DNA of 64,000 nucleotides from an uncultured Candidatus Saccharibacteria bacterium (GTDB lineage: Bacteria > Patescibacteriota > Minisyncoccia > Phycocordibacterales > CSBR16-119): NCBI GenBank assembly GCA_964652835.1, contig CAZZCB010000002.1, positions 584 through 64,583 of the forward strand, written 5' to 3'. The translations under genes were made by a program, and so were the position numbers. This document shows, piece by piece, positions 12,444 through 29,112 of this stretch (position 1 is its first letter; every line of letters starts with the position of its first letter). The notes under the pieces are model-generated. The model was not told the origin of the DNA. It saw only the letters and a list, made by a program, of their open reading frames with translations, and made no database searches.

Positions 12444-12634
12444 GTAATTTTGTTTTATTCCTAGGTGTAGACTTAAAATACTTAACCTGGAATTTGTCCG
12501 CAAGGACGAAAAAATAATAGTGAGCATATCGCTGTTATGAAAGACCGAAACCATATGGTTTCGGTCTTTCTCGTTTTGCTGTATTCCACAGTTTTCTGGC
12601 AGAAATATTGTTTTTTATTGGTATAATAAAAATA

Positions 12635-15553
12635 ATGAGGAAAAAAATATCTTTTTTAATTTTAACTATTCTAGCTGTCGGCAGTTTGTATTTCTTAGCT
12701 TTCCCTAAGGGGGATGAGGTTTTTGCGGGGGTTGGTTCAGTCATTGATGTTATTAAAATTGACTCAAGCACAACTAATGGCCCGACCACTTCGGCCGATG
12801 ATAATTACGGATACTCTGTAAGCAATATTGGCGATTTAAACAATGATGGAATTGATGATGTTGCTGTTGGCGCACCTGACGATGATGCCGGAGGATTTAG
12901 TCGAGGAGCGGTTCATATTCACTTTATGAACACAGACGGATCTATTGATTCTACAGTGGAAATAAACGACTTAACTGCGAATGGTCCCACACTTAGTAAT
13001 CTAGATCGTTACGGTACTTCTGTTACAGGTCTTGGCGATTTAAACAATGACGGCGTCATAGATATTGCCGTGGGAGCACCAAGAGATGACTCCGGAGGTG
13101 TTGACTTCGGTGCTTTCTATATTCACTTTATGAACACAGACGGATCTATTGATTCTACAGTGGAAATAAACGACTTAACTGCGAATGGTCCAGACTTTTC
13201 TGGGACGTGGCCTTATTTTGGTTCAAGTATTGACGGATCTGTGGATCTAAACGCAGATGGTGTGAATGATATTATTGTGGGCGCACCGCTTGATGATGAA
13301 AGTGGATTTAACTTCGGTGCTTTCTATATTCTATTTATGAACACGGATGGTTCTGTTGATTCGACTGTTAAAATAAACGACTTAACTACAAATGGTCCGG
13401 CCTTAGATGAAAGCTATTCTTATGGTGCGTCTGTTTCTTTTGTGGGTGACATAAATGATGACGGTGTTGTAGATATTGCAGTAGGGGCAGACAGTGACGG
13501 CTCTCTAGGCGCGGGTAGAGGGTCCATGTTTATTCACTTTATGAACATAGATGGCTCTATTGATTCTACTACCAAAATTAACGGTAACACCAGTAATGGA
13601 CCAACGCTTCTTAATAATGGTCTTTACGGTTCATCTATTAGAGGGATTGGGGATCTAAACGCAGATGGCGTGGAAGATATTGCTGTCGGGGCTCCCGGTG
13701 ACTCATTGTTGGGTGCCACATATTTACATTTTATGAATGAAGATGCTTCTATTTACAGGACATTTAAAATGACATCGGCAAACCAAGATGGACTGGTTCT
13801 GAGTTTAGGTGCCTCATATGGCTATTCCATTGCGCATTTGGGTGATTTTAATAGTGACGGCGTGGAAGATATTGCAGTTGGAGCTTTAAACGAAGAAGCC
13901 TTTTTTATCCATTTTCTGGAATTAACACCAGATGTTTTGGTTACTCAAACAGGATCAGATACTACTGTTTACGAATCAGGTCTGACAGACACAATCAATG
14001 TAGTGCTTGATTTCGTTTCCCCAAATGATCCCGTAACGGTTACGCTTGTAAGCAGTAGTCCAGATATGATTCTCGATCAAACAACTCTCGTTTTCGATAA
14101 TTTAAATTGGGATACTCCCCAAGCTGTTACCATATCTGCTGTAAATGATACCGAAGTGGAAGGAGCAGAGGTTGCAACCATTTCTTATATAGTTGAATCA
14201 GATGATGTTGCTTACGACGGTTACGCCATTTCTAACACATCTGTTAATATTGTAGACAATGATTCTGGTGTTCTCTATACTATTATTATGGATTATGGAA
14301 GTTATGATCTTTCTGAGGACGGAGATGTGAATATTGTAGACGTAGTTCTCTCGGGTGACCCAGGGGATGATGTTACTGTTACTCTTATCCCAGACGATCA
14401 GATTACACTAGATATTGAGGAATTATTTTTTACATCCGGAGACTGGGACCTTCCTCAGACAGTAACTATCACAGCAATCGACGACCTTGATGTTGAAGGT
14501 CTTCACGATGGTCTTATATCTTCAACTTCTTCTTCATTGAACCCAGATTTTAATAATCTTTCTATTGCCGATGTATCTCTTTTAATTCTAGATAACGATG
14601 TTGGTGTAGTTGTGACAGAAACAAATACCACTACTGAAGTCACAGAAGGGGGCGCCACAGACACTTTTAGTGTGGTGATGTCAACGCAGCCTACCGATGA
14701 CGTTGTGGTAACGATGTCTTCAGATGCGCAAATTTCTTTGGATGCAAATATTCTGACATTTACAACTCTAGATTGGGATACCTCGCAAGTGGTCACCGTA
14801 ACAGCCATAAACGACGCAGTTATAGAAGGTAACCACACTGGTCTTGTGGGATTTGCAGTCTCTTCTTTCGACGTAAACTACGATCTCTATTTATTAGAAG
14901 ATGTTACTGCATCTATAACAGATAACGACCCAGAACCTGAGCCAGATCCAGAGCCACAGGCTTCAGGGTCTTCAAGTAGTTCTGGTTTTATAATGCCTCA
15001 TATTCGCTTCAAGGACAAAATAAAGGACACAGATTTTCGGTTTGTAGATTTGGAAGCTTACGCGCCATACACCATAACTTACTTTGAAATATCAAACACT
15101 CCAGATTTCTTCATTAAAGAAACTTATCAAAGAGAATACACACAAAAAGATTTGTATTGGGATCTGTGTAAGGGTCTTTCCTCGTGCGTTTCTGGAGAAA
15201 AATTAGTTTACGCTCGTTTTTACAGCGACGTTGTCGGAGTTCGTGAAGATGTTATATCTATAAACTACAATCCAAAGCTTGAGTGTCCGTACTTTAAAGG
15301 ATTCCTGCGAAAAGGTTCAAAGACAAATGATCCATTAGAAGTGAAAAAAGCACAAGAATTCTTAAATAGGGAATTAAATATCAATCTAGACATAGACGGC
15401 ATTTTTGGAAAGTATACAGATAGGGCCGTTAGAGACTTCCAAGAAAAATATCCACAAGAAATCTTATTCCCATGGCAAGGGTTAACTAAATCAACAGGTT
15501 GGTGGTATATCACAACATCAAGATATGCAAATATTTTAATGGGATGTAAATAA
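12635..15553 (+). CDS. Large secreted FG-GAP/integrin-alpha-like repeat protein with Ig-like/Calx-like middle domains and a C-terminal peptidoglycan-binding-like module.
   Basis: Signal anchor MRKKISFLILTILAVGSLYF. At least 7 repeats of 'DLNNDGxxDxAVGAP.DD..G...GA..IHFMNTDGS'. A PEPEPDPEP linker, 'SGSSSSSG', then the C-terminal 'LEVKKAQEFLN...DGIFGKYTDRAVRDFQ' (PG_binding_1-like). Confidence 0.8.
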   Translation: MRKKISFLILTILAVGSLYFLAFPKGDEVFAGVGSVIDVIKIDSSTTNGPTTSADDNYGYSVSNIGDLNNDGIDDVAVGAPDDDAGGFSRGAVHIHFMNTDGSIDSTVEINDLTANGPTLSNLDRYGTSVTGLGDLNNDGVIDIAVGAPRDDSGGVDFGAFYIHFMNTDGSIDSTVEINDLTANGPDFSGTWPYFGSSIDGSVDLNADGVNDIIVGAPLDDESGFNFGAFYILFMNTDGSVDSTVKINDLTTNGPALDESYSYGASVSFVGDINDDGVVDIAVGADSDGSLGAGRGSMFIHFMNIDGSIDSTTKINGNTSNGPTLLNNGLYGSSIRGIGDLNADGVEDIAVGAPGDSLLGATYLHFMNEDASIYRTFKMTSANQDGLVLSLGASYGYSIAHLGDFNSDGVEDIAVGALNEEAFFIHFLELTPDVLVTQTGSDTTVYESGLTDTINVVLDFVSPNDPVTVTLVSSSPDMILDQTTLVFDNLNWDTPQAVTISAVNDTEVEGAEVATISYIVESDDVAYDGYAISNTSVNIVDNDSGVLYTIIMDYGSYDLSEDGDVNIVDVVLSGDPGDDVTVTLIPDDQITLDIEELFFTSGDWDLPQTVTITAIDDLDVEGLHDGLISSTSSSLNPDFNNLSIADVSLLILDNDVGVVVTETNTTTEVTEGGATDTFSVVMSTQPTDDVVVTMSSDAQISLDANILTFTTLDWDTSQVVTVTAINDAVIEGNHTGLVGFAVSSFDVNYDLYLLEDVTASITDNDPEPEPDPEPQASGSSSSSGFIMPHIRFKDKIKDTDFRFVDLEAYAPYTITYFEISNTPDFFIKETYQREYTQKDLYWDLCKGLSSCVSGEKLVYARFYSDVVGVREDVISINYNPKLECPYFKGFLRKGSKTNDPLEVKKAQEFLNRELNINLDIDGIFGKYTDRAVRDFQEKYPQEILFPWQGLTKSTGWWYITTSRYANILMGCK
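12917..13395 (+). repeat. Intragenic tandem repeats of about 204 bp, with two about-71-bp copies identical at the nucleotide level.
   Basis: 'ATTCACTTTATGAACACAGACGGATCTATTGATTCTACAGTGGAAATAAACGACTTAACTGCGAATGGTCC' occurs at about 12917-12987 and again at about 13121-13191. A diverged third copy is at about 13319-13395. Confidence 0.85.
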
Positions 15554-15556
15554 AAC

Positions 15557-15587
15557 AAAAGAGCCTGAAGGCTCTTTTGTTTTATTT
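15557..15587 (+). terminator. Rho-independent terminator.
   Basis: AAAGAGCC-tgaa-GGCTCTTT plus TGTTTTATTT. Confidence 0.65.
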
Positions 15588-15665
15588 GTGGATAACTAGA
15601 CACGAATATAAAAAATCATTGTTATAATAAAAACAATTATCAGTTAATTCTTAATTACTTTTATT

Positions 15666-17549
15666 ATGAATCAAAACAAAGAAGAGGGAGCTGTGGAGAT
15701 GAGCAAGGGGATGGTAGGTGTTGGGGTCGCTCTGGCACTTGCGCTAATTATTGGATTTTTTGTATATCCGAATATTCTTCATCAAAAAGGAGAACTTGCA
15801 CCAGACGCTCCAAAAAATTTGGCGGGTACAGCGGGAGATGGAATTCTTGATTTAACCTGGACTGCTCCAGCAGACGGAGGGTCTCCTATCACCTCATATA
15901 ATGTTAAATATGATGTTGTTGGTGGTGAAAATGAAACTATTGTTGATACTCGTACAAATAAAGCTTTCTATACTTTGACAGGGCTTACAAATGGTGAGAC
16001 TTATACGGTGTCTGTATCTGCGGTAAACGCAATAGGCGAGGGTCTGTATTCAGCTACGGCAGAATTTGGACTTGATGCGGTTGATGTGGGTGCGCCTCCA
16101 ACCGCCGCAACAAATCTTTCTGCTACAGGAGGTCAAAATAAAGTTAACTTAACCTGGGATGCTGCAGCAGAAAAAGGGTCTGCTATTACTGACTATATTG
16201 TTGGTTATAGAGTGAAAGAAAGTGGTCTTGATTACACAGAAATTTCTACCAAATCAACAAACACAGCATATTCAGTATTAGACCTTGCTGATGCTACTAT
16301 CTATGAGTTTGTTGTTTATGCTGTCAGTGATGCGGGAAATAGTGCGGCCTCTGCTGCTGCTACGGCTACCACTCTACCAGCTCTTGATCCTGGTGTAGAC
16401 CTTTCAATATCTACTGAGCCAACTGTTACCGTAACAAGTAACAGCGCGGAGATAACTTGGGGAACATCAAAATCAGCATCTTCTCAAGTTTACTACGGGG
16501 TAACAGACAGTATGGGGTCAATGACTGAAAAGATGAATACGACTCCGATGGTTAAAGGGCACACAGTAAGCCTCAGCTCCCTTGCTTCTTGTACGATCTA
16601 TGTTTACAAAGTTGCGTCTTTTGACTCTGAGGAAAATATGGTTGAAAGCACGGCTGGTGAATTCACCACTGCGGGCTGTAAAGGAGACGCTTCTGTGATA
16701 ACTTACTCAAAAGACAAAGCAACAGCAGATACTGGGGTTACAGTTACAGCTAAGGTTTCAGGAAGAGGTCTTACTGTTACAGTTCCAGCAGCGGTTGTTA
16801 CAGGATCAGACGTGGCAATCCAAGCACTAAAAGTTTCTAAAGATGAGGTTGTCGCAGAAATAGCGAAACCTGCTGGAAAAGAATGGATTGGTTCACCTTA
16901 CATCCTAAACGCTATCGAAAACGCATCCACAGAAGTAACATCTTTTGATAAGCCGGTAACAGTTTCTATAGATTACCAAAATGAAGATGTTGGAAATGTA
17001 GATCCAAATACGTTAAAGATTTGGCACTATGAAGATGGGGCGGGATGGAGAGAGTTATCTTCTTGTTCTACTTCGTTAAACGGTGTTGGTGGAACTGTGA
17101 CTTGTTCCACAACCTCATTCTCTGTGTTCGGTTTGTTTGGTGAAGAGGGTTCTGGTGGCGGTGATACTGGAGGTGGTGATAATGACCCCACGCCTTCTCC
17201 TTCAAGACCTTCTACTACAACAGGAAGTGTCCCTACAAATCCGATAGTTGTTAATCCTCCAATGGATAACAATGAATATAATTTTACAAAAAATCTATGG
17301 GTAGGAATTCGAGATATGGATGTAAAACTACTACAAAGATTTCTAAACCTAAAAGGATTCACTGTTTCAACAGACGGACCTGGATCAGCGGGGCAGGAAA
17401 CTGAATTCTTCGGAGCTAAAACAAAACAGGCTTTGATCAAGTTTCAAGAAGCTTACAAAGTAAATATTTTAACTCCGATAGGTCTTAATTTAGGAACAGG
17501 ATTCTTCGGGCCTCAGACAAGAAATTATATAAATTCAATGTCTAACTAA
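15666..17549 (+). CDS. Secreted fibronectin-III-repeat surface protein with a C-terminal peptidoglycan-binding-like module.
   Basis: N-terminal TM/signal. Two FN3-like units ('LDLTWTAPADGGSPITSYNVKYD', 'VNLTWDAAAEKGSAITDYIVGYR') and a PAP-N-like FN3 ('AEITWGTSKSASSQVYYG'). A Pro/Thr/Ser linker. C-terminal 'LLQRFLNLKGF...FGAKTKQALIKFQ'. Confidence 0.75.
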   Translation: MNQNKEEGAVEMSKGMVGVGVALALALIIGFFVYPNILHQKGELAPDAPKNLAGTAGDGILDLTWTAPADGGSPITSYNVKYDVVGGENETIVDTRTNKAFYTLTGLTNGETYTVSVSAVNAIGEGLYSATAEFGLDAVDVGAPPTAATNLSATGGQNKVNLTWDAAAEKGSAITDYIVGYRVKESGLDYTEISTKSTNTAYSVLDLADATIYEFVVYAVSDAGNSAASAAATATTLPALDPGVDLSISTEPTVTVTSNSAEITWGTSKSASSQVYYGVTDSMGSMTEKMNTTPMVKGHTVSLSSLASCTIYVYKVASFDSEENMVESTAGEFTTAGCKGDASVITYSKDKATADTGVTVTAKVSGRGLTVTVPAAVVTGSDVAIQALKVSKDEVVAEIAKPAGKEWIGSPYILNAIENASTEVTSFDKPVTVSIDYQNEDVGNVDPNTLKIWHYEDGAGWRELSSCSTSLNGVGGTVTCSTTSFSVFGLFGEEGSGGGDTGGGDNDPTPSPSRPSTTTGSVPTNPIVVNPPMDNNEYNFTKNLWVGIRDMDVKLLQRFLNLKGFTVSTDGPGSAGQETEFFGAKTKQALIKFQEAYKVNILTPIGLNLGTGFFGPQTRNYINSMSN

Positions 17550-17812
17550 ACCTAAAATAAGCTAAATAAAACAGGCACCTTTTTGACAAAGGTGCTTGTT
17601 TTAGTAATATATATAACGATATTTAGTAAGGTACTTGACAAATGGTATACATTTAGTGTATAATCCGTCATGTATAAAAACCCTAAAGAAAAAGTAATAA
17701 GGGTCAGCATTGTTCGTTCAGAGACACAATAAGAGACAAAAAGTCTTTTATAGGTGTCCTTTATCAGTTAGTTATTAGTAGAAAGCTTATTAGTTTTTAA
17801 AAGACATATTAT

Positions 17813-20806
17813 ATGAAGAAATTCAAGAAAAATATCTCAAAGACAATTTTCGCTTCATTCTTTGTTTTACAGTTTGTGGTATCGACAGCGTTCATGCCAC
17901 TTGCTGCTAACGCACAAGAAGTAGCGGCTGAAGAATCTTCGAAAGAAGAAGTCTCAGAGGCTCAAAAAGAGGAAGCGCCAGAGGTGACAGAAGAAGTTGT
18001 CTCAGACGTTAAAGAAGAAATTTTAATAGAAGACATAAAAGACTTAGAAGAGGTTGTCTCTGTCGAATCAACTACAGTTTCAGAAGAAATTGTCCTTGAT
18101 GAATCAGCGGCGCCTGTAAAAGAAACTGAAAGCCCTGTTTTCCAAACAGTAGGTGCTCTAGCTTCTGTAAAAGTTTGTAAGGTGATAATCGACTCAGAAG
18201 GAAATATCGTTTCTGACTGGTCAGCTTATCCTGGAGCAACTTTTTCTACAAATCTTAATTTTCAAGGGGCTCAGTACTCTTTTGAATTTTCAACATCTGG
18301 AGAAATAAATTACGCAGACGGGTATGCTTTCGCTGCTGTTTGTGATACCCAGGAATTTGCAATTGATACTTCAGTAGAAGGTCTTAAGTTTGTTAAATAT
18401 ACAGAAGAAGACCCTGCTGGACCATACTCTTGGGTAAGAAATTACTTCGAGGGTGACGCTCAAGGTGAAACTGGATTGTATAACAATCTTGGTGGGGCAA
18501 TGTTTGCGCCGTTCACATCAGAAGATACTGCTTATGACGGTCAATTCGAATTAAACGGAAATGATAGTGGTTTTGATACTACAACTCTTTTCCTTGTTAA
18601 CGAAGAAATAAAAACCGTTAACCCATCTTGTGATAAAGATTTAAATCTTATTACAAACGGAGGATTTGAAAATCCAAACGTTGGTGGAAACTGGAATATT
18701 TTCCAAGACGGAACATCTGGTCTTGGTTGGATGGTTGCTTGGGAAGGTTCTGCAGGAAATAATTCTGTAGCCAATCTTGAAATCCACGGAGGCGTGGCCG
18801 GATGGGAAGCTTCAGAAGGAAATCAATATGCAGAGCTTGACTCTGACTTTGATGGACCAACTGGCTCAATTCAAAATGAATCAGCATCAACTAGAATTTC
18901 ACAAGTATTAAACACTGTCCCTGGACAAACTTATGAAATATCTTTTGACTTTGCTGCTCGTCCTGGAACTGATTATGCTGACAATCGACTCGGACTATAT
19001 CTTGACGACGTTGCTTGGGATACAAGCTTTACGAGAACAAACGTTGACGGTACACAACCAAACTGGGTTACAATAACAAGAACTTTTACTGCTGTTAAAT
19101 CAACAACAATAATTTCTTTTGCTGACCTAGGTACTCCAGACTCTTTCGGAACTTTACTTGATAACGTTTCTGTAAAATGTATCGATGGAGGTCCAGTGGA
19201 TATAAATATTCCACCAAAAATAGTTGTTAACCCACTTGAAGTTTGTTTACCTCTAACTGCTACAACTTATGACTTCCTGGCAGGAGTTACAGGTGAAGAT
19301 GCAGAAGACGGAACAATTACTTTAACAGAGGCAAATTACACTCACAATATTATTTTTGGAACAGCTGGTACTTATACTATTAACTACACTGTAACTGATA
19401 GCGACGGCGCTACTGCGACTGACTCTCGAACAGTTTTTGTAAAAGAAAATTGCGGAGGTGAGCCAGAAGAATGTCCAGCAATCATTAGAGTTAGTGAAAA
19501 TGGAAGAGAAGGAATGGTAGAAGTTTCAAGACTTAACCCAAGATGGGTAAACTCAATCCCAGGAAGCTCTGCAGAATGGGTATGGAACAATGCTGCTATC
19601 CCAGTTTTCCCTGATCGACAAAACGGAGGAACATTCACAGTTACTGAAACATTTAATATTGTTGGTAACCCAGAAGCTTCTGAAATAAAGATCGCTGCTG
19701 ATAACGTGTACTCTGTGGTTGTAAACGGTAACACTGTTTACGGTAACCCAGCGCTAACACCAGCAGATATTGAAAACATTACATCTCCAGAGTCTCGATT
19801 CGGAGTTGTATACTCACACGCAATTCCAGCTAATTTACTAAACACTGGATCAAACACAATCGTAATACGAGCTGTTAATCAAGAGTGGCCACTAGTTCTA
19901 ACATCAGCAAATGTAGACACTAACCCAGCAGGATTAATGTATGCACTTACAGTAAACGAAGATTGTGATGACGGCGATGGTGGTGATGGAGGAGGAAGTG
20001 ACGATTTAACAGTCGTTGTTTCAGACTCTTGTGTTGAAAGAGGAACAGAAAACTTTGACTTTTTGTCAGGCATAACTGTTACTCACACACTTCTAAATGG
20101 TAATGTAACTCTTGTAGAAGGTGATAACGTAACAATTACAGAATCTGTTGACTTCAATGTAAACGGAAACTACACAGTAACTTACTCATTCAATATTCTA
20201 GGAGAACAAGTTTCAGAAGACCGAATAATCTCAATACAAGATGATTGTGGTAACGGTGGAGGCGGAGGAAATGGTGGAGGAGGTTCTTCTTCATCAGGTT
20301 CTCGAAGAAATTCTGACGGTGAAGTATTAGGTGCTACAAGTTGTGTTGCATTTACTACATACAACCGATCAGGAAACACAGGAGGAGAAATTAAAGCCCT
20401 ACAAACATTCCTAAACCTATACATGAACGCAGGATTAACAGTTGATGGAGTTTATGGAGCAACAACAGTACAAGCTGTTCACGATTTCCAAGCTTTCCAC
20501 TGGAAAGAAGTTATCGATCCATGGACACCACCACTTTCTCCTAACACTACAGGATGGCAATACAAGACAACAAGAATGACTATAAACGCTATTATTGATT
20601 GTCCAGAAGCCCCAGTATACCTAGAAGATCCAGGCGTGATGTACCAAGTACTAGAAGTAACAGACCAAAAAGAACTAACAACAGGCGAACTTGAAACAAT
20701 CTACAATTTACTAGCAGAGGCTCAGTCAGGAAATGTTCTTGGCGCTTCATCAGTAAATAGTATTGATTACTCAAATCCAAATTTTGACCTAATGTTCGGA
20801 AAATAA
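17813..20806 (+). CDS. Large secreted surface protein: acidic N-terminal region, a DUF642-like jelly-roll domain, Ig-like domains, and the C-terminal peptidoglycan-binding-like module. Paralog of 24159..26051.
   Basis: Signal peptide MKKFKKNISKTIFASFFVLQFVVSTAFMPLAANA. 'NGGFENP...GW...LEIHGG..GWEA.EG.QYAELDSD'. 'GGGGSSSSGSRRN' then 'GEIKALQTFLN...DGVYGATTVQAVHDFQ'. A strong terminator lies at 20860-20899. Confidence 0.8.
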   Translation: MKKFKKNISKTIFASFFVLQFVVSTAFMPLAANAQEVAAEESSKEEVSEAQKEEAPEVTEEVVSDVKEEILIEDIKDLEEVVSVESTTVSEEIVLDESAAPVKETESPVFQTVGALASVKVCKVIIDSEGNIVSDWSAYPGATFSTNLNFQGAQYSFEFSTSGEINYADGYAFAAVCDTQEFAIDTSVEGLKFVKYTEEDPAGPYSWVRNYFEGDAQGETGLYNNLGGAMFAPFTSEDTAYDGQFELNGNDSGFDTTTLFLVNEEIKTVNPSCDKDLNLITNGGFENPNVGGNWNIFQDGTSGLGWMVAWEGSAGNNSVANLEIHGGVAGWEASEGNQYAELDSDFDGPTGSIQNESASTRISQVLNTVPGQTYEISFDFAARPGTDYADNRLGLYLDDVAWDTSFTRTNVDGTQPNWVTITRTFTAVKSTTIISFADLGTPDSFGTLLDNVSVKCIDGGPVDINIPPKIVVNPLEVCLPLTATTYDFLAGVTGEDAEDGTITLTEANYTHNIIFGTAGTYTINYTVTDSDGATATDSRTVFVKENCGGEPEECPAIIRVSENGREGMVEVSRLNPRWVNSIPGSSAEWVWNNAAIPVFPDRQNGGTFTVTETFNIVGNPEASEIKIAADNVYSVVVNGNTVYGNPALTPADIENITSPESRFGVVYSHAIPANLLNTGSNTIVIRAVNQEWPLVLTSANVDTNPAGLMYALTVNEDCDDGDGGDGGGSDDLTVVVSDSCVERGTENFDFLSGITVTHTLLNGNVTLVEGDNVTITESVDFNVNGNYTVTYSFNILGEQVSEDRIISIQDDCGNGGGGGNGGGGSSSSGSRRNSDGEVLGATSCVAFTTYNRSGNTGGEIKALQTFLNLYMNAGLTVDGVYGATTVQAVHDFQAFHWKEVIDPWTPPLSPNTTGWQYKTTRMTINAIIDCPEAPVYLEDPGVMYQVLEVTDQKELTTGELETIYNLLAEAQSGNVLGASSVNSIDYSNPNFDLMFGK

Positions 20807-20955
20807 AACTAAACAAACAGAAGTAAGATTTGTTCTTGATGTAAAATGTACTTTATACAAAAGACCCGCCGGCGCTTGCGCCGGCGGGTCTTTTGTTTTC
20901 CACAAACTTTTAAAATATTTTTATTTTTTAATTGCTATAATATAAACAGATATTT

Positions 20956-21453
20956 ATGAAAAATAAAAGTTTTTCAAAAACCAAATTTAACATTGCTTGG
21001 GCTTCTATCGTCACTATCTTTATTGGCGCTGTTGTTTATGTACCAGCGCTCAAGTTTTCTCAAAAAGAAAAAGAAGTTGTTTACTATAGAGTTCCTGTTT
21101 TTGTTAACATGACGCCTTCTACTGAAAATGGAGGTCAGCCTACAAATTCAGAGTCAGAAAAAGAAGAACCTTTAATAAAAGTATCTAATTCTCGTATCAC
21201 TAAAGATTTAAAATTAGGTGACGTTGACGAAGAAGTTAAGCTCCTACAAGAGTATCTTAATGGTAGAGGATTTCTTGTTGCAGAGTCTGGACCTGGCTCA
21301 CCAGGTCAAGAGACGACAAGGTTCGGCGCCGGAACTCGCGACGCCCTGATAAAGTTCCAAGAAGCAAATGCGGAGCTTATCCTAAAACCTTTTGGTCTAA
21401 AAGAGGGAACAGGAGTGGTGGGTAAAATGACAAGAGATTTAATTAACTCATAA
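20956..21453 (+). CDS. Small membrane-anchored protein with a peptidoglycan-binding-like C-terminal module.
   Basis: N-terminal TM (IAWASIVTIFIGAVVYV). C-terminal 'VKLLQEYLNGRGFLVAESGPGSPGQETTRFGAGTRDALIKFQ' is nearly the same module as the 15666 gene's C-terminus. Confidence 0.6.
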   Translation: MKNKSFSKTKFNIAWASIVTIFIGAVVYVPALKFSQKEKEVVYYRVPVFVNMTPSTENGGQPTNSESEKEEPLIKVSNSRITKDLKLGDVDEEVKLLQEYLNGRGFLVAESGPGSPGQETTRFGAGTRDALIKFQEANAELILKPFGLKEGTGVVGKMTRDLINS

Positions 21454-21456
21454 TAT

Positions 21457-22824
21457 ATGAAAAAAATATTTACAGTGTTCTTACTAGCAGTGATTTATTT
21501 CGCTCCTTTTTCTGCTCGTGCAGAAAGCATTCCCCCTTCAGCTCCGCTTAATTTAGAGATTACAAACCTCGGAGATTTAACAGTCATGCTTTCTTGGGAT
21601 CCGCCGGCATCAGAAGGTGATTCACCAGTGGGTGGGTACATTATTTACTATGTAGAAAGGGTTTACGGTGATACTTTTATGATAGAGGGTCCAGTTACAA
21701 CTTTCACTACGGGAAAATTAAAGGCTGGAGCTTCTTATGACTTCTGGGTTGTTGCATATAACGCCTATGGGGAAGGTGACATATCAGAGAGAGTTAAAGT
21801 CGTGCCCACAGAAGACGTTACTGGGCCTGTTATAACAGTAGCTCCACAAGTTTCTTCTGTAACAGACAAAACTGCAAATATATATTGGGAAACAGACGAA
21901 TATGCTTCTACATATTTAAATTTTGATGTCCATGGAAATGGTCCACACAACTCAATAAATATTAAAGGTCTAAGTCTTACTCACGATGTTTCCTTAAGTG
22001 GTCTTTTGCCTTGTACTACTTATTTTTACAACGTTACGAGTTCTGATGCCGCTTCAAATACCGTAAGGTCGGATGTAAGTTCGTTCAAGACTAACGGATG
22101 CCTCGGCGCTATTTTAGATGAAATAGAAAGTAGTCTCGGTCTTCCAGTCGATTCGCTGTCTGTAAATTTTGAAAGAAGTGGTGTTGAGGTTTCTCTTCTT
22201 CCAGATTCTTTTGATCTAGAATCTATTTTCCAAATTAAAAAATTAAGCATAGCCGATGTCGATGCAAACGTCGGATGTCCAGCCGGAAACAAACCTATCG
22301 GAGGTCGGATCTACGATATAAAACTTCTAGAAGAATATGACAGACAAGCATCTCTTAAAAAACCAGCGACGGTAACAATGTCTTACGACCACTCAGAACT
22401 CTCTGGTGTTGATGAATCTTTGATCTCAATGTTCCACTACACAGACGAGTCAGGATGGGTAAAGCTTAACTCTTGTACCTTGGACAATGAAAGAGATGAG
22501 ATAACTTGTGAGACAGAGAGCTTTTCAAAATTTATGATTTCTTTTGGTGAAGAATATAAATGCAAGCCTCTTATGAAAAATCTTTCATTTGGAAGCTATC
22601 ATGTAGATGTATTTTCTCTTCAGGAATTTTTAAATAAAAATGGTTTTATGGATTCTTTTAAAGATTCTACTTTTAAGGGGGTAGAAGAGAAGAGGTTATT
22701 CGATGGAAAAACCGCCAAGGCTCTCCGCAGTTTCCAGGAAGCCTCTGGGATAAATGGAATAGAAAAAACACTCAGATTTCTGGGTCCAAAAACAAGAGAT
22801 TTTATAAATAACCAAAATAAATAG
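21457..22824 (+). CDS. Secreted FN3 / purple-acid-phosphatase-N-like repeat protein with a peptidoglycan-binding-like C-terminus.
   Basis: Signal peptide. 'LTVMLSWDPPASEGDSPVGGYIIYY' (FN3), 'ANIYWETDEYASTYLNFDVHG' (PAP-N-like). C-terminal 'LQEFLNKNGF...GKTAKALRSFQ'. Confidence 0.7.
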   Translation: MKKIFTVFLLAVIYFAPFSARAESIPPSAPLNLEITNLGDLTVMLSWDPPASEGDSPVGGYIIYYVERVYGDTFMIEGPVTTFTTGKLKAGASYDFWVVAYNAYGEGDISERVKVVPTEDVTGPVITVAPQVSSVTDKTANIYWETDEYASTYLNFDVHGNGPHNSINIKGLSLTHDVSLSGLLPCTTYFYNVTSSDAASNTVRSDVSSFKTNGCLGAILDEIESSLGLPVDSLSVNFERSGVEVSLLPDSFDLESIFQIKKLSIADVDANVGCPAGNKPIGGRIYDIKLLEEYDRQASLKKPATVTMSYDHSELSGVDESLISMFHYTDESGWVKLNSCTLDNERDEITCETESFSKFMISFGEEYKCKPLMKNLSFGSYHVDVFSLQEFLNKNGFMDSFKDSTFKGVEEKRLFDGKTAKALRSFQEASGINGIEKTLRFLGPKTRDFINNQNK

Positions 22825-22904
22825 TTAAATATCAAAAATATTGGTAAAATTAGTCTAGTGAACTAGGTACTTGATTTTTATTTTATTTATGTTATAATAT
22901 AGAG

Positions 22905-24044
22905 ATGAAAAAAAGCTTTAAAAAATACTTTATCCCAAACCAAGAAAACGACCATAAACCTCACTTTCTAAGAGAAAGGTCTGTTCTTGTTATTTTGGCT
23001 ATTGCCTCAATACTTTTATTCGCCTCAGTCATCGGTACTTACGTTGTTAAAAACTCAAAATTCTTAGCTGCTATACAATCAGCCTTTTTGGTTGATCTTG
23101 CAAACGAAGACAGGGCAGAGCAAGGTGCTGGCAAGCTTGTTATGAACGACGAACTTGTCTTAGCTGCTCAGTTAAAAGCAAATGATATGGCACAAAAAAG
23201 TTACTTTGCCCACACGAGCCCTGAAGGCTTAACTCCTTGGCATTGGTTCGGACAAGCTGGCTACGACTATATCTACGCTGGAGAAAACTTGGCTGTTAAC
23301 TTCAATAGATCTGAAGATGTTCAAAGAGCGTGGATGAATTCACCTCTACACCGAGCAAACATTTTGAATAATAGATATAAAGAAATCGGTATCGCTACTG
23401 CAGAAGGTATGTATAAGGGTGAAAAGACAACCTTCGTTGTTCAGATGTTCGGAACGCCGACTACTACAAATCTTAATACTACTCCCGCCCCTCAAACAGC
23501 GTCAGTAAATGATATTCCCGACGCAGAGGAGCCAGCAGAGCTCGTCGCTTCTGTTGATTTAAATCCAGAGGTGGAAGGAGAATCTATTGTAAAACCTGAA
23601 GTTAAAAAAGAAGCCCCGGTAGAATCTACGCCAGAGCCTTCTGTAAAAACTCAAACAAAAGTTGCGCAGATAGAAAAACCAACTCAGGCCGAAACTAAAA
23701 CAGAAGTTTCTACAGAGGTGTCTGGTCCTGAAAACATTTTCACTGAGACAACAAACCCTCTATACGAAGGTCAGAATGTCGCCGGAGCGGAAGACCCTCA
23801 AACTGAAGTAACTTATACAAATTGGTTTGAAAGATTTTTAGTGAATCCTGGAGATGCGGTAAACAAAGCTTATGTAATACTCTTCGTAATAATCCTATTT
23901 TCTATAATTCTGAAGATATTTATCGCGATAAATAAGCAACATCCAAAAAATATTGCTTACGGAGTATTGCTCCTAATCCTGGTTCTGATATTTATGTATA
24001 TCAACCAAGAGATATTCATACAGCCAGTAGTGGCATCAGTCTAA
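22905..24044 (+). CDS. CAP/SCP/PR-1 (YkwD-like) domain protein with an N-terminal TM, a Thr/Pro/Glu-rich linker and a C-terminal TM.
   Basis: 'LAAQLKANDMAQKSYFAHTSPEGLTPWHWFGQAGYDYIYAGENLAVNFNRSEDVQRAWMNSPLHRANIL' matches the CAP-domain consensus (GENIA...WMNSPGHRANIL). Confidence 0.75.
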   Translation: MKKSFKKYFIPNQENDHKPHFLRERSVLVILAIASILLFASVIGTYVVKNSKFLAAIQSAFLVDLANEDRAEQGAGKLVMNDELVLAAQLKANDMAQKSYFAHTSPEGLTPWHWFGQAGYDYIYAGENLAVNFNRSEDVQRAWMNSPLHRANILNNRYKEIGIATAEGMYKGEKTTFVVQMFGTPTTTNLNTTPAPQTASVNDIPDAEEPAELVASVDLNPEVEGESIVKPEVKKEAPVESTPEPSVKTQTKVAQIEKPTQAETKTEVSTEVSGPENIFTETTNPLYEGQNVAGAEDPQTEVTYTNWFERFLVNPGDAVNKAYVILFVIILFSIILKIFIAINKQHPKNIAYGVLLLILVLIFMYINQEIFIQPVVASV

Positions 24045-24158
24045 TAAAACAAAACAAAAAATACCGTATGTCAATACGGTATTTTTGTTGACAACATGAA
24101 AATATCAGAACATAATGATAAATAAGGAAGATTACTTTTAATAAAAGTTCTTAAGGGC

Positions 24159-26051
24159 ATGCAAATGTCATATTTATCATTTAATTTTATTAATATTATG
24201 AAAAGAAATATTTTAACTAAGGTTTTGAGTTTGTTTACTATATTTGCGATGACTTTTAACGTCGCTTTTGCAGCTAACGAAACTATTACTATTTGTCACG
24301 TTCCACCGGGAAATGAGGGAAATCCTCAAACTTTGAATATATCTATTAATGCTTGGGAAAACGCTCATGATTCTGGAACGGGCGAGCATTCAAACGATTA
24401 TGAAGGGCCATGTGATGGCGATGAAGAACCAGCACCCTTGGTTTGTGCGGAAAATCTAAGCATAGTAAATGGTGGTTTTGAAAACCCTTTAGTAGGGAAT
24501 GAATCAGGATGGCAACTTTTCCCAAACGGAACAGTTGATTTGGGCTGGACGGTTACTTGGGTTTCTCCAGATGGAAATGCTCCATCAGAGGCAAACCTAG
24601 AAATTCACGGCGGTGTTAATGGATGGGAAGCTTTAGAAGGAGGGCAATACGCAGAGCTTGGATCAGATTATGGAGACCCTGCAGGAGGATTAGCTGCGAC
24701 TAAAATTTCTCAAGAATTCGATACAATAGAAGGAGCCACTTATGAGATTGCTTACTCTTTTGCTGCAAGACCAAACACATCAGAAGATGAAAATATTTTA
24801 AAAGTTTACATAAATGGTGACGAAGTAGAGTCTCATGGGCCAGTTGCCGGAGGAGAATCTAATCTTTGGTCTACTTACTTTATTGAATTCGCAGCCACAG
24901 GAGACTCAACAGAAATTTCTTTTGAAGACGCGGGAACAGTAAATTCAGTCGGAACATTTCTAGATGATGTTTCTGTTATCTGTGTTTCTGATGCAGAAGT
25001 TCCAGAAGTATGTTTACCGATTGTTAGAATCAGTGAAAACGGAAGAGAAGGAATGGTAAAAGTTACAAAGGTTAACCCAAGATGGGTTCCTTCAATCGCC
25101 GGAACTAACGCTAAGTGGGTATGGAACAATGCATCAATACCAGTATTTCCAGACAGACAAGATGGTGGAGTGTTCACAGTTAATGAAACAATCAATATTG
25201 TAGGAAATCCACAAGACTCTGAAATCAAAATAGCTGCAGACAACGTATACTCTGTTGTTGTAAACGGTGACACTGTTTACGCTTACAGTGGTAACCCAGC
25301 TTTGACTCCAGGAGATATCGAAAATATTCCATCTACTGATTCTAAGTTTTCTGTTGTGCATGAACACACAATTCCAGCTAACTATTTAAACACAGGATTA
25401 AACACAATCAAGATAAGAGCTGTAAACCAAAAATGGACACCAGTTCTAACATCAGAAAGTACAGCTACAAACCCAGCAGGTTTAATGTATGCACTGACTA
25501 TTAATGAAGATTGTGATGGTGGGGGAGATCAAGAAAACGATGAACCAGCAGATGAACAACCAGAAGAAAATGACGAAAGTGAGCCAAACGATCCAGTTTC
25601 TGAAACTGAAGACGAATCTGTAAATATAGAAGAAGATAATAACCAAAATTCAGGAAGCTCTTCATCAGGCTCACGAGCCTCTGGAGGCGGAGCAGTTCTA
25701 GGAGCTTCTACAGAAGGAGAAGTTCTCGGAGCTTGTGTTCCTTTCGCTATGTATCACAAAAAAGGTGATGTTGGTGGGGAGGTTGCAAAAATCCAAGAAT
25801 TCTTAAATGAACAAATAAATGCAGGACTTACAGTTGACGGAGTTTATAACGAAGCAACTGAAAAAGCTGTTCACTCTTTCCAACAAAAATATTTCGAGCA
25901 AGTAATCTCACCTTGGGTTCCGTCATTTATGGCGAGAACAACAGGAAAGTGGTACAAGACAACTAGAATGATGGCAAACAAAATTATTGATTGTCCAGAA
26001 GCTCCAGTTTATCTTGAAGACCCAAAGATTATATACGAAGTTAAATGGTAA
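24159..26051 (+). CDS. Secreted surface protein with a DUF642-like jelly-roll domain, a conserved middle domain and a peptidoglycan-binding-like C-terminus. Paralog of 17813..20806.
   Basis: Signal anchor. 'NGGFENPLVGNESGWQLF...LEIHGGVNGWEALEGGQYAELGSD'. An about-170-aa block about 60% identical to the 17813 gene ('VRISENGREGMVKVTKVNPRWV...NPAGLMYALTINEDCD'). An acidic DE-rich linker, 'GSSSSGSRASGG', then 'EVAKIQEFLN...DGVYNEATEKAVHSFQ'. Confidence 0.8.
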   Translation: MQMSYLSFNFINIMKRNILTKVLSLFTIFAMTFNVAFAANETITICHVPPGNEGNPQTLNISINAWENAHDSGTGEHSNDYEGPCDGDEEPAPLVCAENLSIVNGGFENPLVGNESGWQLFPNGTVDLGWTVTWVSPDGNAPSEANLEIHGGVNGWEALEGGQYAELGSDYGDPAGGLAATKISQEFDTIEGATYEIAYSFAARPNTSEDENILKVYINGDEVESHGPVAGGESNLWSTYFIEFAATGDSTEISFEDAGTVNSVGTFLDDVSVICVSDAEVPEVCLPIVRISENGREGMVKVTKVNPRWVPSIAGTNAKWVWNNASIPVFPDRQDGGVFTVNETINIVGNPQDSEIKIAADNVYSVVVNGDTVYAYSGNPALTPGDIENIPSTDSKFSVVHEHTIPANYLNTGLNTIKIRAVNQKWTPVLTSESTATNPAGLMYALTINEDCDGGGDQENDEPADEQPEENDESEPNDPVSETEDESVNIEEDNNQNSGSSSSGSRASGGGAVLGASTEGEVLGACVPFAMYHKKGDVGGEVAKIQEFLNEQINAGLTVDGVYNEATEKAVHSFQQKYFEQVISPWVPSFMARTTGKWYKTTRMMANKIIDCPEAPVYLEDPKIIYEVKW

Positions 26052-26148: not shown

Positions 26149-29112
26149 ATGGCAAAAGACTATAACCACAAAGAAATAGAACCGAAATGGCAGAAATTCT
26201 GGGAAGAAAATCACGTTTATAAAACAGAAGAAAATGGAAGTAAACCAAAACAATACATCTTAGATATGTTTCCATATCCTTCGGGGGCGGGACTTCACGT
26301 TGGCCACCCTCGCGGATACATCGGTTCTGACGTTCTTTCTCGTATGCGAAGAATGCAGGGCTTCAACGTTCTTCACCCGATGGGCTTTGACGCTTTCGGT
26401 CTTCCGGCTGAACAATACGCAATCCAAACTGGTGAGCATCCATCTGTTATCACAGAAAAAGCGATAGAGACATATAAAAAACAACTAAGCCTAATTGGTC
26501 TTTCGTATGATTGGTCTAGAGAAGTGGAGACGATAGATCCAGAGTACTACAAATGGACACAGTGGATTTTCCTAAAACTTTACGATTCTTATTTTGATGA
26601 AAAAGAAGGTAAAGCAAAACCTATCTCAGATCTTACCCTACGATTTGAAAAAGAAGACCCTTCTTGGAATTCAAAATCAGAAAAAGAAAAAGAGGATTTG
26701 CTGATGAATTACCGTTTGGCTTATGAAGGTTACAGTGAGGTGAACTGGTGTCCAGAGCTTGGCACAGTTTTGGCGAACGACGAAATAGTTGATGGTCCTG
26801 ACGGTAAACCTGTTTCAGAACGAGGCGGTTTTCCTGTTGAAAAGAAAAATATGCGTCAGTGGTTCCTGCGAATCACCGCGTACGCAGACAGACTTTTGTC
26901 TGGGCTTGAAACTGTATCTTGGCCAGAACACATAAAAGAAATTCAAAAGAACTGGATAGGGAAATCAGAAGGAGCTGAGATTGAATTTGCTTTTGCGGAA
27001 ACACCAGAGCATAAAATAAAAGTATTTACGACTCGCCCAGAAACTATTTTCGGTGCGACGTTTATTGCGGTGTCGGCCGGATATGCAAATGAGTGGCTTA
27101 AAAATGATTGGAACCCAAGCGATGAAATAAAAAACTATATTTCAAAAACTTTAAAAGAGAATGAAAACACCGACTTTAAAGAAAAAGAAAAAACTGGAGT
27201 TTGTGCTGACTTTGAAGTAGTAAATCCTGCGACAGGAGAAAATATTCCTGTTTGGATTACAAACTATGTTTTAGACGGAGTTGGAACTGGCGCGATAATG
27301 GCTGTTCCCGCACATGATGAAAGAGACTTTGAATTTGCAAAGAAGTTTGGGCTACAAATTAAACAAGTTATTGCACCAAGTTTTGTTGGGGATGGGATTA
27401 ACGCCCCGAGAGAGGGTGTTGAGACGATCGAAAGAAAAACCGTAACTGCTGTTATAAAAAATCCTAAAAATAACTTATATTTAGTTCTTAAAGAGAAAGA
27501 CAATAATGTTTTTGTTGGTGGCGGAGTAGACGACGGTGAAAGTGTAGAAGATGCTGTTAAAAGAGAGATTGTTGAAGAGACTGGATATAAAAATATTGAG
27601 ATAAAAACAAAAATGTTTGAGCATTTATTTGCTCATGGTTTTAGACATACAAAACAATTAAATCAAAAGACAGACGATACATTCTTCTTTATTGAGTTGT
27701 TAGACGAAGATAAAGTTGAAAGTGAAGCTGACACGGAAAGACATAATGTTTTGTGGGTCTCTGAGGGTGAAATAGATAAGGTTGTAACATGGGAGCACCA
27801 TAAATTTTTCTGGAATCTTTGGAAAAACGGAAAAATATTTGATGGAGAAGGTGTGCTGGTTAATTCAGCAGAATTTAATGGCCTAACGTCAGAAGAAGCA
27901 AAATCAAAAATCACAGAATTCGTGGGAGGGAAAATGGTTATGAAATACAAAATGCGTGATGCTATTTTTGCACGACAAAGATATTGGGGTGAGCCAATTC
28001 CACTTAAGCGTGTGGACGGTTTGATTAATCCTCTTTCTGAAAACGAGCTCCCACTAGAGCTTCCAAACGTTTCTTCATATAAACCGGCGGGGAATGGTGA
28101 ATCTCCACTTGCAGGCGTTTCTGAATGGGTAGAAAAAGGTTTTGAAACAAATACGATGCCTGGCTGGGCAGGATCTTCTTGGTATTTTTTGCGATATATG
28201 GATCCGAAAAACAGCCAAGCTTTTGCCGGAAAAGATGCGGTGAAATATTGGCAAGATGTGGACGTGTATGTTGGCGGCGCAGAACATGCGACAGGGCACC
28301 TTTTGTATTCACGTTTTTGGCATAAAGTTTTAAAAGATTTGGGATATGTTCCGACTGAAGAACCTTTTAAACTTTTGAAAAACCAAGGACTTATACTCGC
28401 AAGCGACGGAAGAAAAATGTCTAAGCGATGGGGAAATGTAGTGAACCCAGATGAGATGGTGGACCGTTTCGGTGCGGACTCTTTTAGACTTTATGAAATG
28501 TTTATCGGGCCTTTCGAACAATACACTTCTTGGAACACAGACGGACTTGTGGGAACAAGAAGATTTTTAGAACGTGTATGGAGAGCGAAAGAAAGAATCG
28601 GAGAAGAAAATAAAGAGGTTGATATTTTGGTAAATAAAACTATCAAGAAAATCACGGATGATATAGAAAATTTCAGATTTAATACTTCTGTTTCTTCGAT
28701 GATGATTTTGGTAAATAAAATGGAAGAAGCACCATCTTTTTCAAAAGAAAACTATTTAGATTTCCTAAAAATTCTTGCGCCATTTGCTCCGCATATGACA
28801 GAAGAACTTTGGCAAGAACTCGGAGAAGTTCGCGCCTTAAAGGATGCTGCGCGAACCGATTTTGCTAAATCGTCAATCCATCTTTCTGATTGGCCAAAAG
28901 CTGACGAATCAAAACTAAAAGATGAAAAAGTAAAAATAGCTGTTCAGGTAAACGGAAAAGTTCGCGACGAAATAGAAATCGCCCCTGACGCTTCTGAAGA
29001 AGAAGTTAACGATTTGGTTTTATCACGTCCTATTATTCAAGACTTCGTCCGTGAAGAAAAAATCAAAAAGTTTATTTACGTAAAAGGTAAGATAGTGAAC
29101 ATCGTTATCTAA
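26149..29112 (+). CDS. leuS: Leucyl-tRNA synthetase carrying a Nudix-hydrolase domain inserted in the CP1 editing domain.
   Basis: 'PYPSGAGLHVGHPRGY' (HIGH-class), editing motif 'TGAIMAVPAHDERDFEFA', 'KMSKRWGNV' (KMSKS). The inserted about-160 aa contain a canonical Nudix box 'GGGVDDGESVEDAVKREIVEETGY'. Confidence 0.93.
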   Translation: MAKDYNHKEIEPKWQKFWEENHVYKTEENGSKPKQYILDMFPYPSGAGLHVGHPRGYIGSDVLSRMRRMQGFNVLHPMGFDAFGLPAEQYAIQTGEHPSVITEKAIETYKKQLSLIGLSYDWSREVETIDPEYYKWTQWIFLKLYDSYFDEKEGKAKPISDLTLRFEKEDPSWNSKSEKEKEDLLMNYRLAYEGYSEVNWCPELGTVLANDEIVDGPDGKPVSERGGFPVEKKNMRQWFLRITAYADRLLSGLETVSWPEHIKEIQKNWIGKSEGAEIEFAFAETPEHKIKVFTTRPETIFGATFIAVSAGYANEWLKNDWNPSDEIKNYISKTLKENENTDFKEKEKTGVCADFEVVNPATGENIPVWITNYVLDGVGTGAIMAVPAHDERDFEFAKKFGLQIKQVIAPSFVGDGINAPREGVETIERKTVTAVIKNPKNNLYLVLKEKDNNVFVGGGVDDGESVEDAVKREIVEETGYKNIEIKTKMFEHLFAHGFRHTKQLNQKTDDTFFFIELLDEDKVESEADTERHNVLWVSEGEIDKVVTWEHHKFFWNLWKNGKIFDGEGVLVNSAEFNGLTSEEAKSKITEFVGGKMVMKYKMRDAIFARQRYWGEPIPLKRVDGLINPLSENELPLELPNVSSYKPAGNGESPLAGVSEWVEKGFETNTMPGWAGSSWYFLRYMDPKNSQAFAGKDAVKYWQDVDVYVGGAEHATGHLLYSRFWHKVLKDLGYVPTEEPFKLLKNQGLILASDGRKMSKRWGNVVNPDEMVDRFGADSFRLYEMFIGPFEQYTSWNTDGLVGTRRFLERVWRAKERIGEENKEVDILVNKTIKKITDDIENFRFNTSVSSMMILVNKMEEAPSFSKENYLDFLKILAPFAPHMTEELWQELGEVRALKDAARTDFAKSSIHLSDWPKADESKLKDEKVKIAVQVNGKVRDEIEIAPDASEEEVNDLVLSRPIIQDFVREEKIKKFIYVKGKIVNIVI

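Follow-up and report, generated by a model that had tools for sequence, protein, structure and literature searches.

The stretch of DNA analysed here (the window, 64,000 nucleotides) comes from a Patescibacteria (Paceibacterota-like) bacterium and carries a gene encoding a secreted, wall-associated protein of 972 aa; NCBI lists an identical protein, encoded on a 92-kb contig. The gene is placed in a cluster of surface-protein genes. The protein begins with a hydrophobic signal/anchor, followed by an FG-GAP beta-propeller of six units and then by three ~110-aa internal repeats; a Pro/Glu linker leads to the PG_binding_1 domain at the C terminus. Pfam FG-GAP (PF01839) scores 96.9 bits (cut-off 22.1) in 5 stretches, and PG_binding_1 (PF01471) scores 28.4 bits on the full-length protein and 30.0 bits on a C-terminal fragment (cut-off 23). 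The peptidoglycan-binding tail is thus a Pfam prediction, and the domain content suggests a surface or adhesin role. The features of the gene are as follows.

12635..15553, + strand: gene for the 972-aa secreted, wall-associated protein (ORF; Pfam FG-GAP and PG_binding_1)
12725..12760, + strand: N-terminal beta-strand, aa 31-42, SVIDVIKIDSS..., AF2 strand E2-13, resembling blade strand D
12800..13003, + strand: FG-GAP unit 1 (blade 1), from the in-register repeat families D1-D3, codon alignment and an HMM domain at aa 56-123
13004..13210, + strand: FG-GAP unit 2 (blade 2), from repeat families, codon alignment and HMM
13211..13921, + strand: FG-GAP units 3-6, starting at 13211, 13415, 13619 and 13811, from repeat families, codon alignment and HMM
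14930..14956, + strand: Pro-Glu linker repeat with a 12-nt period (TRF; alignment gap at window position 14932)
15338..15451, + strand: predicted PG_binding_1 domain, aa 902-939 (Pfam)

An earlier note on this DNA had described further, diverged copies of a ~68-aa FG-GAP array, and six units of ~68 aa were indeed found; unit 6 is truncated and is without strand D. The cation-loop motif D-x(1,2)-[ND]-x-D-G-x(1,2)-D has six matches, at aa 67, 135, 204, 272, 340 and 404, and each propeller unit bears a predicted Ca2+-motif loop (DxDxDG-like). The N-terminal strand is a partial unit with which the family consensus also begins. The three middle repeats (13922-14930) gave no significant match in Pfam or PDB sequence searches; by eye they are Calx-beta-like in appearance, and we have left them unnamed.

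AF2 modelled the six-unit head with a pLDDT of 92 and a pTM of 0.91 as 24 strands, arranged as 6 blades of 4. The head is predicted to be a closed six-bladed FG-GAP (integrin-alpha-type) beta-propeller, and in the model the N-terminal strand supplies what the truncated sixth blade lacks, so that the ring is closed ('velcro' closure). Foldseek searches with the six-unit model returned integrin alpha propellers (E 5.5e-20, probability 1.0), with a TM-score to integrin alpha head domains of only ~0.6. The likeness to the integrin alpha-type propeller (PF01839; bacterial examples in PMC3192720) extends from these best Foldseek matches to the FG-GAP repeats and the DxNxDGxxD loop of each unit. On the other hand, the present protein has six blades and an N-terminal closing strand instead of seven blades, and it differs further in its bacterial context, its PG_binding_1 tail and the absence of a beta-subunit partner.

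Units 1 and 2 contain an exact direct repeat of 73 nt (12915-12987 = 13119-13191), in frame, with 204 nt (68 codons) from start to start and a unique spacer of 131 nt between the copies. The two identical segments of ~71 bp reported earlier are therefore present and slightly longer, and their 204-nt spacing is the start-to-start distance. Both copies encode the peptide (Y/H)-IHFMNTDGSIDSTVEINDLTANGP. There is no other exact repeat of at least 25 nt in the whole 64-kb window, and none of 100 dinucleotide shuffles gave any match, even when 3 mismatches were tolerated. The tract copies and their relatives in unit 3 are listed below.

12915..12987, + strand: copy 1 of the probable conversion tract, 73 nt (exact match to 13119-13191; 22/22 degenerate codons identical)
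13119..13191, + strand: copy 2 of the probable conversion tract, 73 nt, at the equivalent position in blade 2 (exact match, codon comparison)
13326..13398, + strand: unit-3 homologue of the tract, diverged (61/73 positions identical; 6 of 18 shared degenerate codons differ synonymously)
13104..13124 (= 13311-13331), + strand: exact match of 21 nt between units 2 and 3 (longest-exact-repeat list, offset 207)

In blade 1, copy 1 encodes the stretch from the end of strand C through an NTDG turn and strand D to the loop that follows; the AF2 strands beneath the tract are E62-69 and E75-81 for copy 1 and E130-137 and E143-149 for copy 2. No other part of the blade is as well conserved across units as this segment, and the encoded peptide is near the family consensus RGAVHIHFMNTDGSVDSTVEINDxTxNGP (40 homologues). 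Unit 3 matches the tract at 84% of positions in the equivalent segment, and unit 4 at 73%. Since the 21-nt match to unit 3 (gene positions 470 and 677) adjoins copy 2 and overlaps its start by 6 nt, unit 2 looks like a mosaic, with a unit-3-like upstream part and a unit-1-like downstream part.

The identity of units 1 and 2 is sharply bounded. The 73 identical nt make up 36% of the 204-nt unit; in the codon alignment the units are identical at 76/131 positions (58%) outside the tract, and a run of 73/73 exceeds what such flanks would lead one to expect. When mismatch positions were permuted 200,000 times, 0 permutations gave a run of 73, the longest being 52. Degenerate codons are identical in 22/22 cases within the tract and in 12/26 outside it (Fisher p = 2e-5), so that synonymous differences have been erased completely within the tract but are near saturation beyond it. 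Homogenisation confined in this way bears out the earlier claim of a DNA-level event over and above protein conservation. Units 1 and 2 are also older than the tract: in four syntenic orthologues (50-58% protein identity) each has its counterpart at the corresponding position, and the longest exact repeats within those genes reach only 18-30 nt. Because of the synonymous codon identity (22/22 against 12/26) and the 58% flanks, we consider the tract, quite probably, to be a partial-unit intragenic gene-conversion tract between blades 1 and 2, the mechanism being one that we infer.

Several other accounts of the tract were weighed. Diversity-generating retroelements are frequent in Patescibacteria, and the template and variable repeats of such an element, or a structured or regulatory RNA, would need repeats of about this size; we rejected both readings as vanishingly improbable, since the copies are identical with no adenine differences (those of unit 3 are not adenine-specific) and lie in frame inside one gene, a Pfam scan of 34 of the 41 window ORFs of at least 150 aa revealed no reverse transcriptase, Rfam had no match in the window, and the tract RNA folds no better than its shuffles (z = -0.64).

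Repeats can be mis-handled in short-read metagenome assembly, and the identity could in principle have arisen in assembly or polishing, with the reads of one copy correcting the other. However, both copies, with identical sequence and ends, occur in four assemblies, namely the window (NCBI) and L001-L003 (JGI 3300055001 and two ENA MEGAHIT assemblies). The latter three, assembled independently, represent a sister lineage that is 96% identical to the window over this gene, with 116 SNPs. What is more, the 73-nt repeat is shorter than both the read length and the final k (119). The concordance of the four assemblies excludes, for the identity itself, the artefact that the earlier note had named as its refutation, and we regard this origin as extremely improbable.

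The idea that an entire FG-GAP unit was recently duplicated in tandem and later diverged outside the tract would agree with a period of one unit (204 nt) and with the adjacency of units 1 and 2. The flanks, at 58% identity and 12/26 codons, are nevertheless near-saturated and no closer than those of other unit pairs, and in the orthologues at 50-58%, which likewise have six units altogether, units 1 and 2 are already distinct and sit in corresponding positions. Judged by these alignments, the duplication is effectively refuted and highly improbable; with just 36% of the unit identical, the "very recent duplication" proposed earlier does not hold either.

Purifying selection on a consensus peptide, combined with the codon bias of a genome with 39% GC, would dispense with any DNA-level event, and the tract does encode a peptide close to the family consensus in the best conserved segment of the unit. 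Yet where other unit pairs agree in amino acid within this segment, they share just 10-12 of 15-18 codons. The observed 22/22 has a probability of ~4e-8 at the outside-tract rate of 0.46 and still of ~4e-5 at the ~0.63 rate of the other unit pairs, which makes selection and codon bias a very unlikely explanation.

Gene conversion, the reading we prefer, would thus postdate the units themselves, but its further history is less distinct. The earlier note had spoken of ongoing conversion; conversion is probable, but the data do not show it to be ongoing, as the two lineages have the same tract with the same ends. The simplest account of a tract common to both is a single event, followed by inheritance or exchange. 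In two lineages with identical tracts, one old event and repeated events look alike. The 146 nt of tract contain 0 inter-lineage SNPs against ~3.6 expected from the 24 SNPs in the remaining 976 nt of the propeller region (Poisson probability ~0.03). This is only marginally unusual, and as the two lineages are mosaic we draw nothing from it about ongoing conversion. Compared by eye with the orthologous units, the tract peptide agrees at ~19/24 positions with unit 2 and at ~16/24 with unit 1, a slight difference that is a weak guide to donor and recipient.

The sister lineage shows two in-frame length differences in this gene. The first is in the Pro-Glu linker, which is longer by one repeat unit (+12 nt, PEPE) in the sister lineage. 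The second is found in L004 (ENA ERZ27249646, a MEGAHIT contig), which has a single tract copy and lacks exactly 204 nt between the tracts; its protein, P0123, lacks exactly 68 aa.

12915..13118, + strand: segment absent from L004, 204 nt = 68 codons (protein and DNA alignments)

Every register of the deletion within the tract is equivalent. The DNA alignment of L004 with L001-L003 has one 204-column gap and 0 SNPs over 2727 nt. A "1 gap" reported by BLAST between L004 and L001 was rejected as a second difference, being an alignment-edge effect, and a neighbouring gene of 624 aa against 635 aa reflects a difference in the called start. The deletion is seen in one short-read MEGAHIT contig, whose end lies ~550 nt from the junction. 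Recombination or template switching between the two tracts would be expected to yield just such a product, and L004 could be either a real allele or a collapse of the repeat by the assembler. The five-unit variant was modelled by AF2 with similar confidence (pLDDT 91), so the modelling gives no sign that the loss of a blade would be harmful; Foldseek again matched the five-blade model to integrin alpha, a match from which ring closure is not readable.

The wider family was examined for unit number and for comparable tracts. The unit number is six in all five orthologous lineages examined. Among 123 homologues the unit-run lengths peak at 6 (73 runs), 12 (27) and 18 (4), with 6 runs of 5 and 13 runs of 7. 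The fixed six units and the 6/12/18 modes fit a closed six-bladed propeller and not an extensible stalk. Of the 18 other family loci that were fetched (L005-L022), 11 contain exact in-register tracts, 33-85 nt long and situated in differing blade segments. Partial homogenisation between blades is habitual in this propeller family, and the feature described here is real but ordinary. A search of JGI metagenome contigs for the exact 73-nt tract had no match, and a protein-based scan of the JGI metagenome collection and GTDB genomes returned distant relatives only (39-60% identity), none from the window's lineage.

These data bear on whether the gene is a true contingency locus, in which blade number is usefully varied to alter the binding or antigenicity of an episymbiont surface protein. 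In-frame identical DNA repeats are present (73 nt, 204-nt period), L004 has a one-unit deletion allele, the PEPE linker provides a second in-frame length polymorphism, the gene lies among surface-protein genes, and the five-unit form folds confidently in AF2; VCBS-type propellers may, moreover, vary in blade number among close relatives (PMC9218822). Against this, unit number is not evolutionarily free, six being found in 5/5 orthologous lineages and as the mode of the family, and the tract occupies only 2/6 blades, unlike classical identical-repeat arrays. Repeat-number variants amount to 1/5 assemblies (L004, on an identical background, where assembler collapse is possible), and expansion alleles to 0/5. 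We therefore think a contingency locus quite unlikely. Of the size-variation hotspot claimed earlier for a surface protein little is left beyond the L004 deletion, itself possibly a collapse; the proposed in-frame expansion and contraction retains a valid substrate geometry and this single one-unit, 204-nt contraction, with no expansion allele seen. One-blade variants would mostly be transient or deleterious and would not constitute a programmed variation system. That the five-blade form is a real circulating variant, that the propeller tolerates or benefits from the loss of a blade and that the episymbiont so varies a surface receptor seems to us unlikely.

Repeat-mediated size variation is familiar from Gram-positive surface proteins such as the group B streptococcal alpha C protein and the staphylococcal Sdr/Clf proteins, whose long arrays string together identical modules that are tolerated independently of one another and are often polymorphic in copy number. 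The present gene is like them in having nucleotide-identical in-frame repeats in a wall-associated protein, with deletion or expansion by recombination or slippage possible; unlike them, it has two short tracts within a closed toroidal domain of conserved unit number. A further parallel lies in the locally repetitive propellers of the VCBS / FG-GAP supercluster, in which adjacent blades reach up to 100% local identity in an otherwise differentiated propeller and blade number can differ among close relatives (Pereira & Lupas 2022, PMC9218822). The local blade identity and a DNA-level process recurring across lineages are common to both. Here, however, 73/204 nt are identical, a partial conversion and not a whole-blade amplification, and the blade count is kept at six in the orthologues.

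The following sequence of events would account for these observations. Blades 1 and 2 are old units, conserved in position. By a short non-reciprocal transfer (intragenic gene conversion), 73 nt of one blade would have been overwritten with the sequence of the other, over the outer strands C-D and the next loop, the part of the blade best conserved in the family. This would have occurred after the split from the 50-58% orthologues, and the sister lineage has the same ends. Partial homogenisation may be habitual in the family because the blades remain similar enough for pairing. As a by-product, conversion would leave a direct repeat (73 nt, period 204 nt) on which RecA-independent template switching or slippage, or unequal crossing-over, could remove or add one blade in frame. 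RecA-independent deletions between close direct repeats of <200 bp are documented in E. coli assays with 101-bp repeats (PMC7145654). The repeats described here are likewise <200 bp and a few hundred bp apart, a geometry from which, by analogy, precise loss of one repeat plus spacer and sometimes expansion might be expected; the mechanism is carried over from E. coli, and for the L004 deletion, as for the conversion, it is a putative one.

The tract is a clean, small case of concerted evolution between the blades of a repetitive beta-propeller, in which a conversion tract creates the substrate for in-frame one-blade indels. Blade-to-blade tracts are common in the family, and the sole notable consequence of this one is a possible one-blade deletion in one public assembly. 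If the five-blade allele is not real, it is a warning that intragenic repeats of 73 nt can leave short-read metagenome assemblies and protein databases with collapsed gene models. If it is real, it would provide those who study propeller evolution with a natural transition from six to five blades in a genetic background that is otherwise identical, and with a population-level snapshot of blade number changed by recombination on a conversion tract. It would also be a hint of surface-protein variation in Patescibacteria.

The FG-GAP gene encodes a protein of 972 aa and carries an exact direct repeat of 73 nt, 12915-12987 being identical to 13119-13191. Both copies lie in frame within the gene and code for (H/Y)-IHFMNTDGSIDSTVEINDLTANGP; they start 204 nt (68 codons) apart and are separated by a unique spacer of 131 nt. 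The earlier note had correctly described nucleotide-identical FG-GAP repeats, the true length being 73 nt and not about 71. No other exact repeat of at least 25 nt is present in the 64-kb window, and shuffled sequence gave no match to such a repeat even with up to 3 mismatches. By repeat-finder and codon-aware alignment the gene contains six successive units of about 68 aa, and the tract is found in units 1 and 2.

12635-15553, + strand: FG-GAP gene
12800, 13004, 13211, 13415, 13619 and 13811, + strand: starts of the six FG-GAP units, the last one truncated

In the rest of their length, units 1 and 2 match at 76 of 131 positions (58%), which makes this pair no closer than other unit pairs (43-63%). 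Of the degenerate residues common to both units, 22 of 22 inside the tract use the same codon versus 12 of 26 outside (Fisher p = 2e-5), and only 10-12 of 15-18 degenerate codons are identical in the same blade segment of other unit pairs. Permuting the mismatch positions 200,000 times gave runs of 52 at most, never 73. The tract peptide is near the family consensus, so the segment is under strong protein constraint. Such constraint does not account for the total lack of synonymous differences, and the identity is a DNA-level event. Readings of the tract as an RNA element or a DGR were rejected because no RNA structure was detected in it (z = -0.64), an Rfam scan of the window returned two tRNAs and nothing else, and there was no reverse transcriptase in the 34 scanned of the 41 window ORFs of at least 150 aa.

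The comparison covered four syntenic orthologues whose proteins are 50-58% identical to the FG-GAP protein and whose loci have a common gene order (Ddl, metallophosphoesterase, FG-GAP gene, fn3 protein, Ig-like protein). All four have six units, and their distinct units 1 and 2 positionally match those of the window, which speaks against a recent duplication. The intragenic exact repeats of the orthologues reach only 18-30 nt at the longest. The units are therefore old, and homogenisation in the lineage of the window touched no more than 36% of one unit. Gene conversion, on the other hand, is borne out by the full synonymous identity of the tract and its diverged flanks. A 21-nt exact stretch common to units 2 and 3 (13104-13124 and 13311-13331) adjoins tract copy 2 at its start, so that unit 2 looks like a mosaic built from several small transfers.

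The 90%-identity protein cluster has three additional members, whose DNA came from four assemblies, one of JGI and three of ENA (sister-lineage contigs L001-L004). Between this lineage and the window the FG-GAP gene has 116 SNPs (96.0% identity). Over the alignable 20 kb the identity runs from 79% to 99% in a mosaic pattern, with neighbouring genes at 75-99%, which suggests inter-lineage recombination. Both copies of the tract are present in three of these contigs, with the same sequence and ends as in the window. The identity, reproduced by independent pipelines and in a second lineage, is therefore not the assembly artefact that the earlier note had considered. Relative to L001, the signal/anchor region has 19 SNPs within 52 nt (window 12667-12718) and SNPs are also dense in the C-terminal part (14957-15430), while the gene core is 97-99% identical. 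The Pro-Glu linker (14930-14956) is a repeat of 12-nt period to which the sister lineage adds one unit (+12 nt, PEPE) in all four contigs, a second in-frame length polymorphism of the gene. The public gene starts differ, P0121 and P0123 having a 27-aa upstream extension and P0122 being 14 aa shorter, so some of the length differences in the cluster are annotation noise and not biology. A gene for DprA (DNA-processing protein A) at 34483-35328 (- strand) is consistent with a capacity for natural transformation and recombination in a small genome.

L001 7731-7811 and L004 192-272: start-call differences between public gene calls

The fourth contig, L004 (ENA ERZ27249646, MEGAHIT k119, 8370 nt), has only one copy of the tract; 204 nt are missing between the tract positions, and its product, P0123, lacks exactly 68 residues. 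Over 2727 nt of the FG-GAP gene it matches L001-L003 without a single SNP, and it is identical across the remaining 7.8 kb. Exactly such a product is expected when the two tracts recombine or a template switch occurs between them. Whether this is a deletion genuinely carried or one made by the assembler is about even. The final k of 119 exceeds the repeat length, so a junction k-mer must stem either from reads or from a contig built at an earlier k, which favors a real allele. The contig is short, however, its end lies about 550 nt from the junction, and, reasoning on the assembler only, loss of the 131-nt spacer by pruning under low coverage at small k could make the join. Of the in-frame size change proposed earlier, contraction is thus geometrically possible and has this one, possibly collapsed, record; no expansion allele was seen.

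A hydrophobic signal or anchor forms the N-terminus; Pfam detects FG-GAP repeats (96.9 bits) and, at the C-terminus, a PG_binding_1 domain. AlphaFold2, given residues 30-445 and 40 aligned homologues, modeled the head (pLDDT 92, pTM 0.91) with 24 strands in six four-stranded blades, the truncated sixth being completed by an N-terminal strand. On this model the tract runs from the end of strand C through the NTDG turn and strand D to include the loop that follows. The best Foldseek matches are integrin alpha head propellers (E 5e-20), a likeness that reaches a TM of only about 0.6. Ahead of the Pro/Glu linker lie three internal repeats, each of about 110 aa (13922-14930, + strand; motif L.F....NWD.PQ.VT..A..D...EG), which have no significant sequence match in Pfam or PDB and by eye look like Calx-beta-like sandwich domains. 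Judged from its domains, the protein likely serves as a wall-anchored, Ca2+-dependent binding head.

The gene is first in a co-oriented cluster of at least seven secreted-protein genes that is syntenic in the orthologous loci. Five of the cluster proteins end in PG_binding_1 (FG-GAP, first fn3, Ig-like/DUF642, small PG-binding and second DUF642), and a further PD40/PG_binding_1 protein is encoded at 42028-44223 (+ strand). A 20-nt AT-rich motif with TATAAT (ATTGKTATAATAAAAAYAAT) precedes the FG-GAP gene (12617-12636) and the next gene (15618-15637), a match count attained by no shuffle (expected 0.05). Its TATAAT is only 8 nt upstream of the FG-GAP ATG (12635), a spacing that may mean a leaderless mRNA or a true start at another position. 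The leucyl-tRNA synthetase (26149-29112, + strand) has a NUDIX hydrolase domain inserted after the editing domain (aa 429-550, E 4e-14), as do most of the full-length homologues listed (Patescibacteria/Paceibacterota), some close relatives lacking it. Judged by its LeuRS homologues, the organism belongs to Patescibacteria, close to Paceibacterota, and the nearest FG-GAP relatives among GTDB genomes are in Moraniibacteriota and other Patescibacteria.

12635-26051, + strand: secreted-protein cluster, in the order FG-GAP, fn3, Ig-like/DUF642, small PG-binding protein, fn3, CAP, DUF642

An HMM of the FG-GAP unit, run over 123 homologues, found runs of 6 (73 runs), 12 (27) and 18 (4) units versus 5 (6 runs, including the L004 product) and 7 (13). 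Together with the six units of every orthologue, this comparative evidence says that six blades are the rule in the family, and the size-variation hotspot suggested previously is not supported as a programmed feature. A closed toroid differs from an extensible stalk. AlphaFold2 folds the five-unit variant with confidence (pLDDT 91, 20 strands), although this model loses the N-terminal closing strand and is no gauge of stability or ring closure. In E. coli, RecA-independent deletion between closely spaced direct repeats (<200 bp) is well studied (PMC7145654). One-blade deletions in the FG-GAP gene are mechanistically easy, with no sign that they are frequent, tolerated or used.

Among 18 further loci of the propeller family (L005-L022), from genomes and metagenomes, 11 have in-register exact blade-to-blade tracts of 33-85 nt, for example 85 nt in L018, 63 in L007, 59 in L005, 58 in L016 and three of 55 in L011.

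L018, 3038-3122 and 3245-3329: tract pair
L007, 5382-5444 and 5793-5855: tract pair

These five loci come from unrelated MAGs and metagenomes, and their tracts involve various blade segments; sites in the family include the FMNTDGS...STVEIN segment, the GDLNNDG...VGA cation loop and inter-blade loops. The blade conversion tract is a further case of an already known kind of feature, and its interest depends chiefly on the five-blade allele being real. Partial blade-to-blade homogenisation is thus habitual in the six-blade FG-GAP family, matching the behavior of repetitive propellers, which show local near-identity and changes of blade number in VCBS and FG-GAP lineages (PMC9218822).
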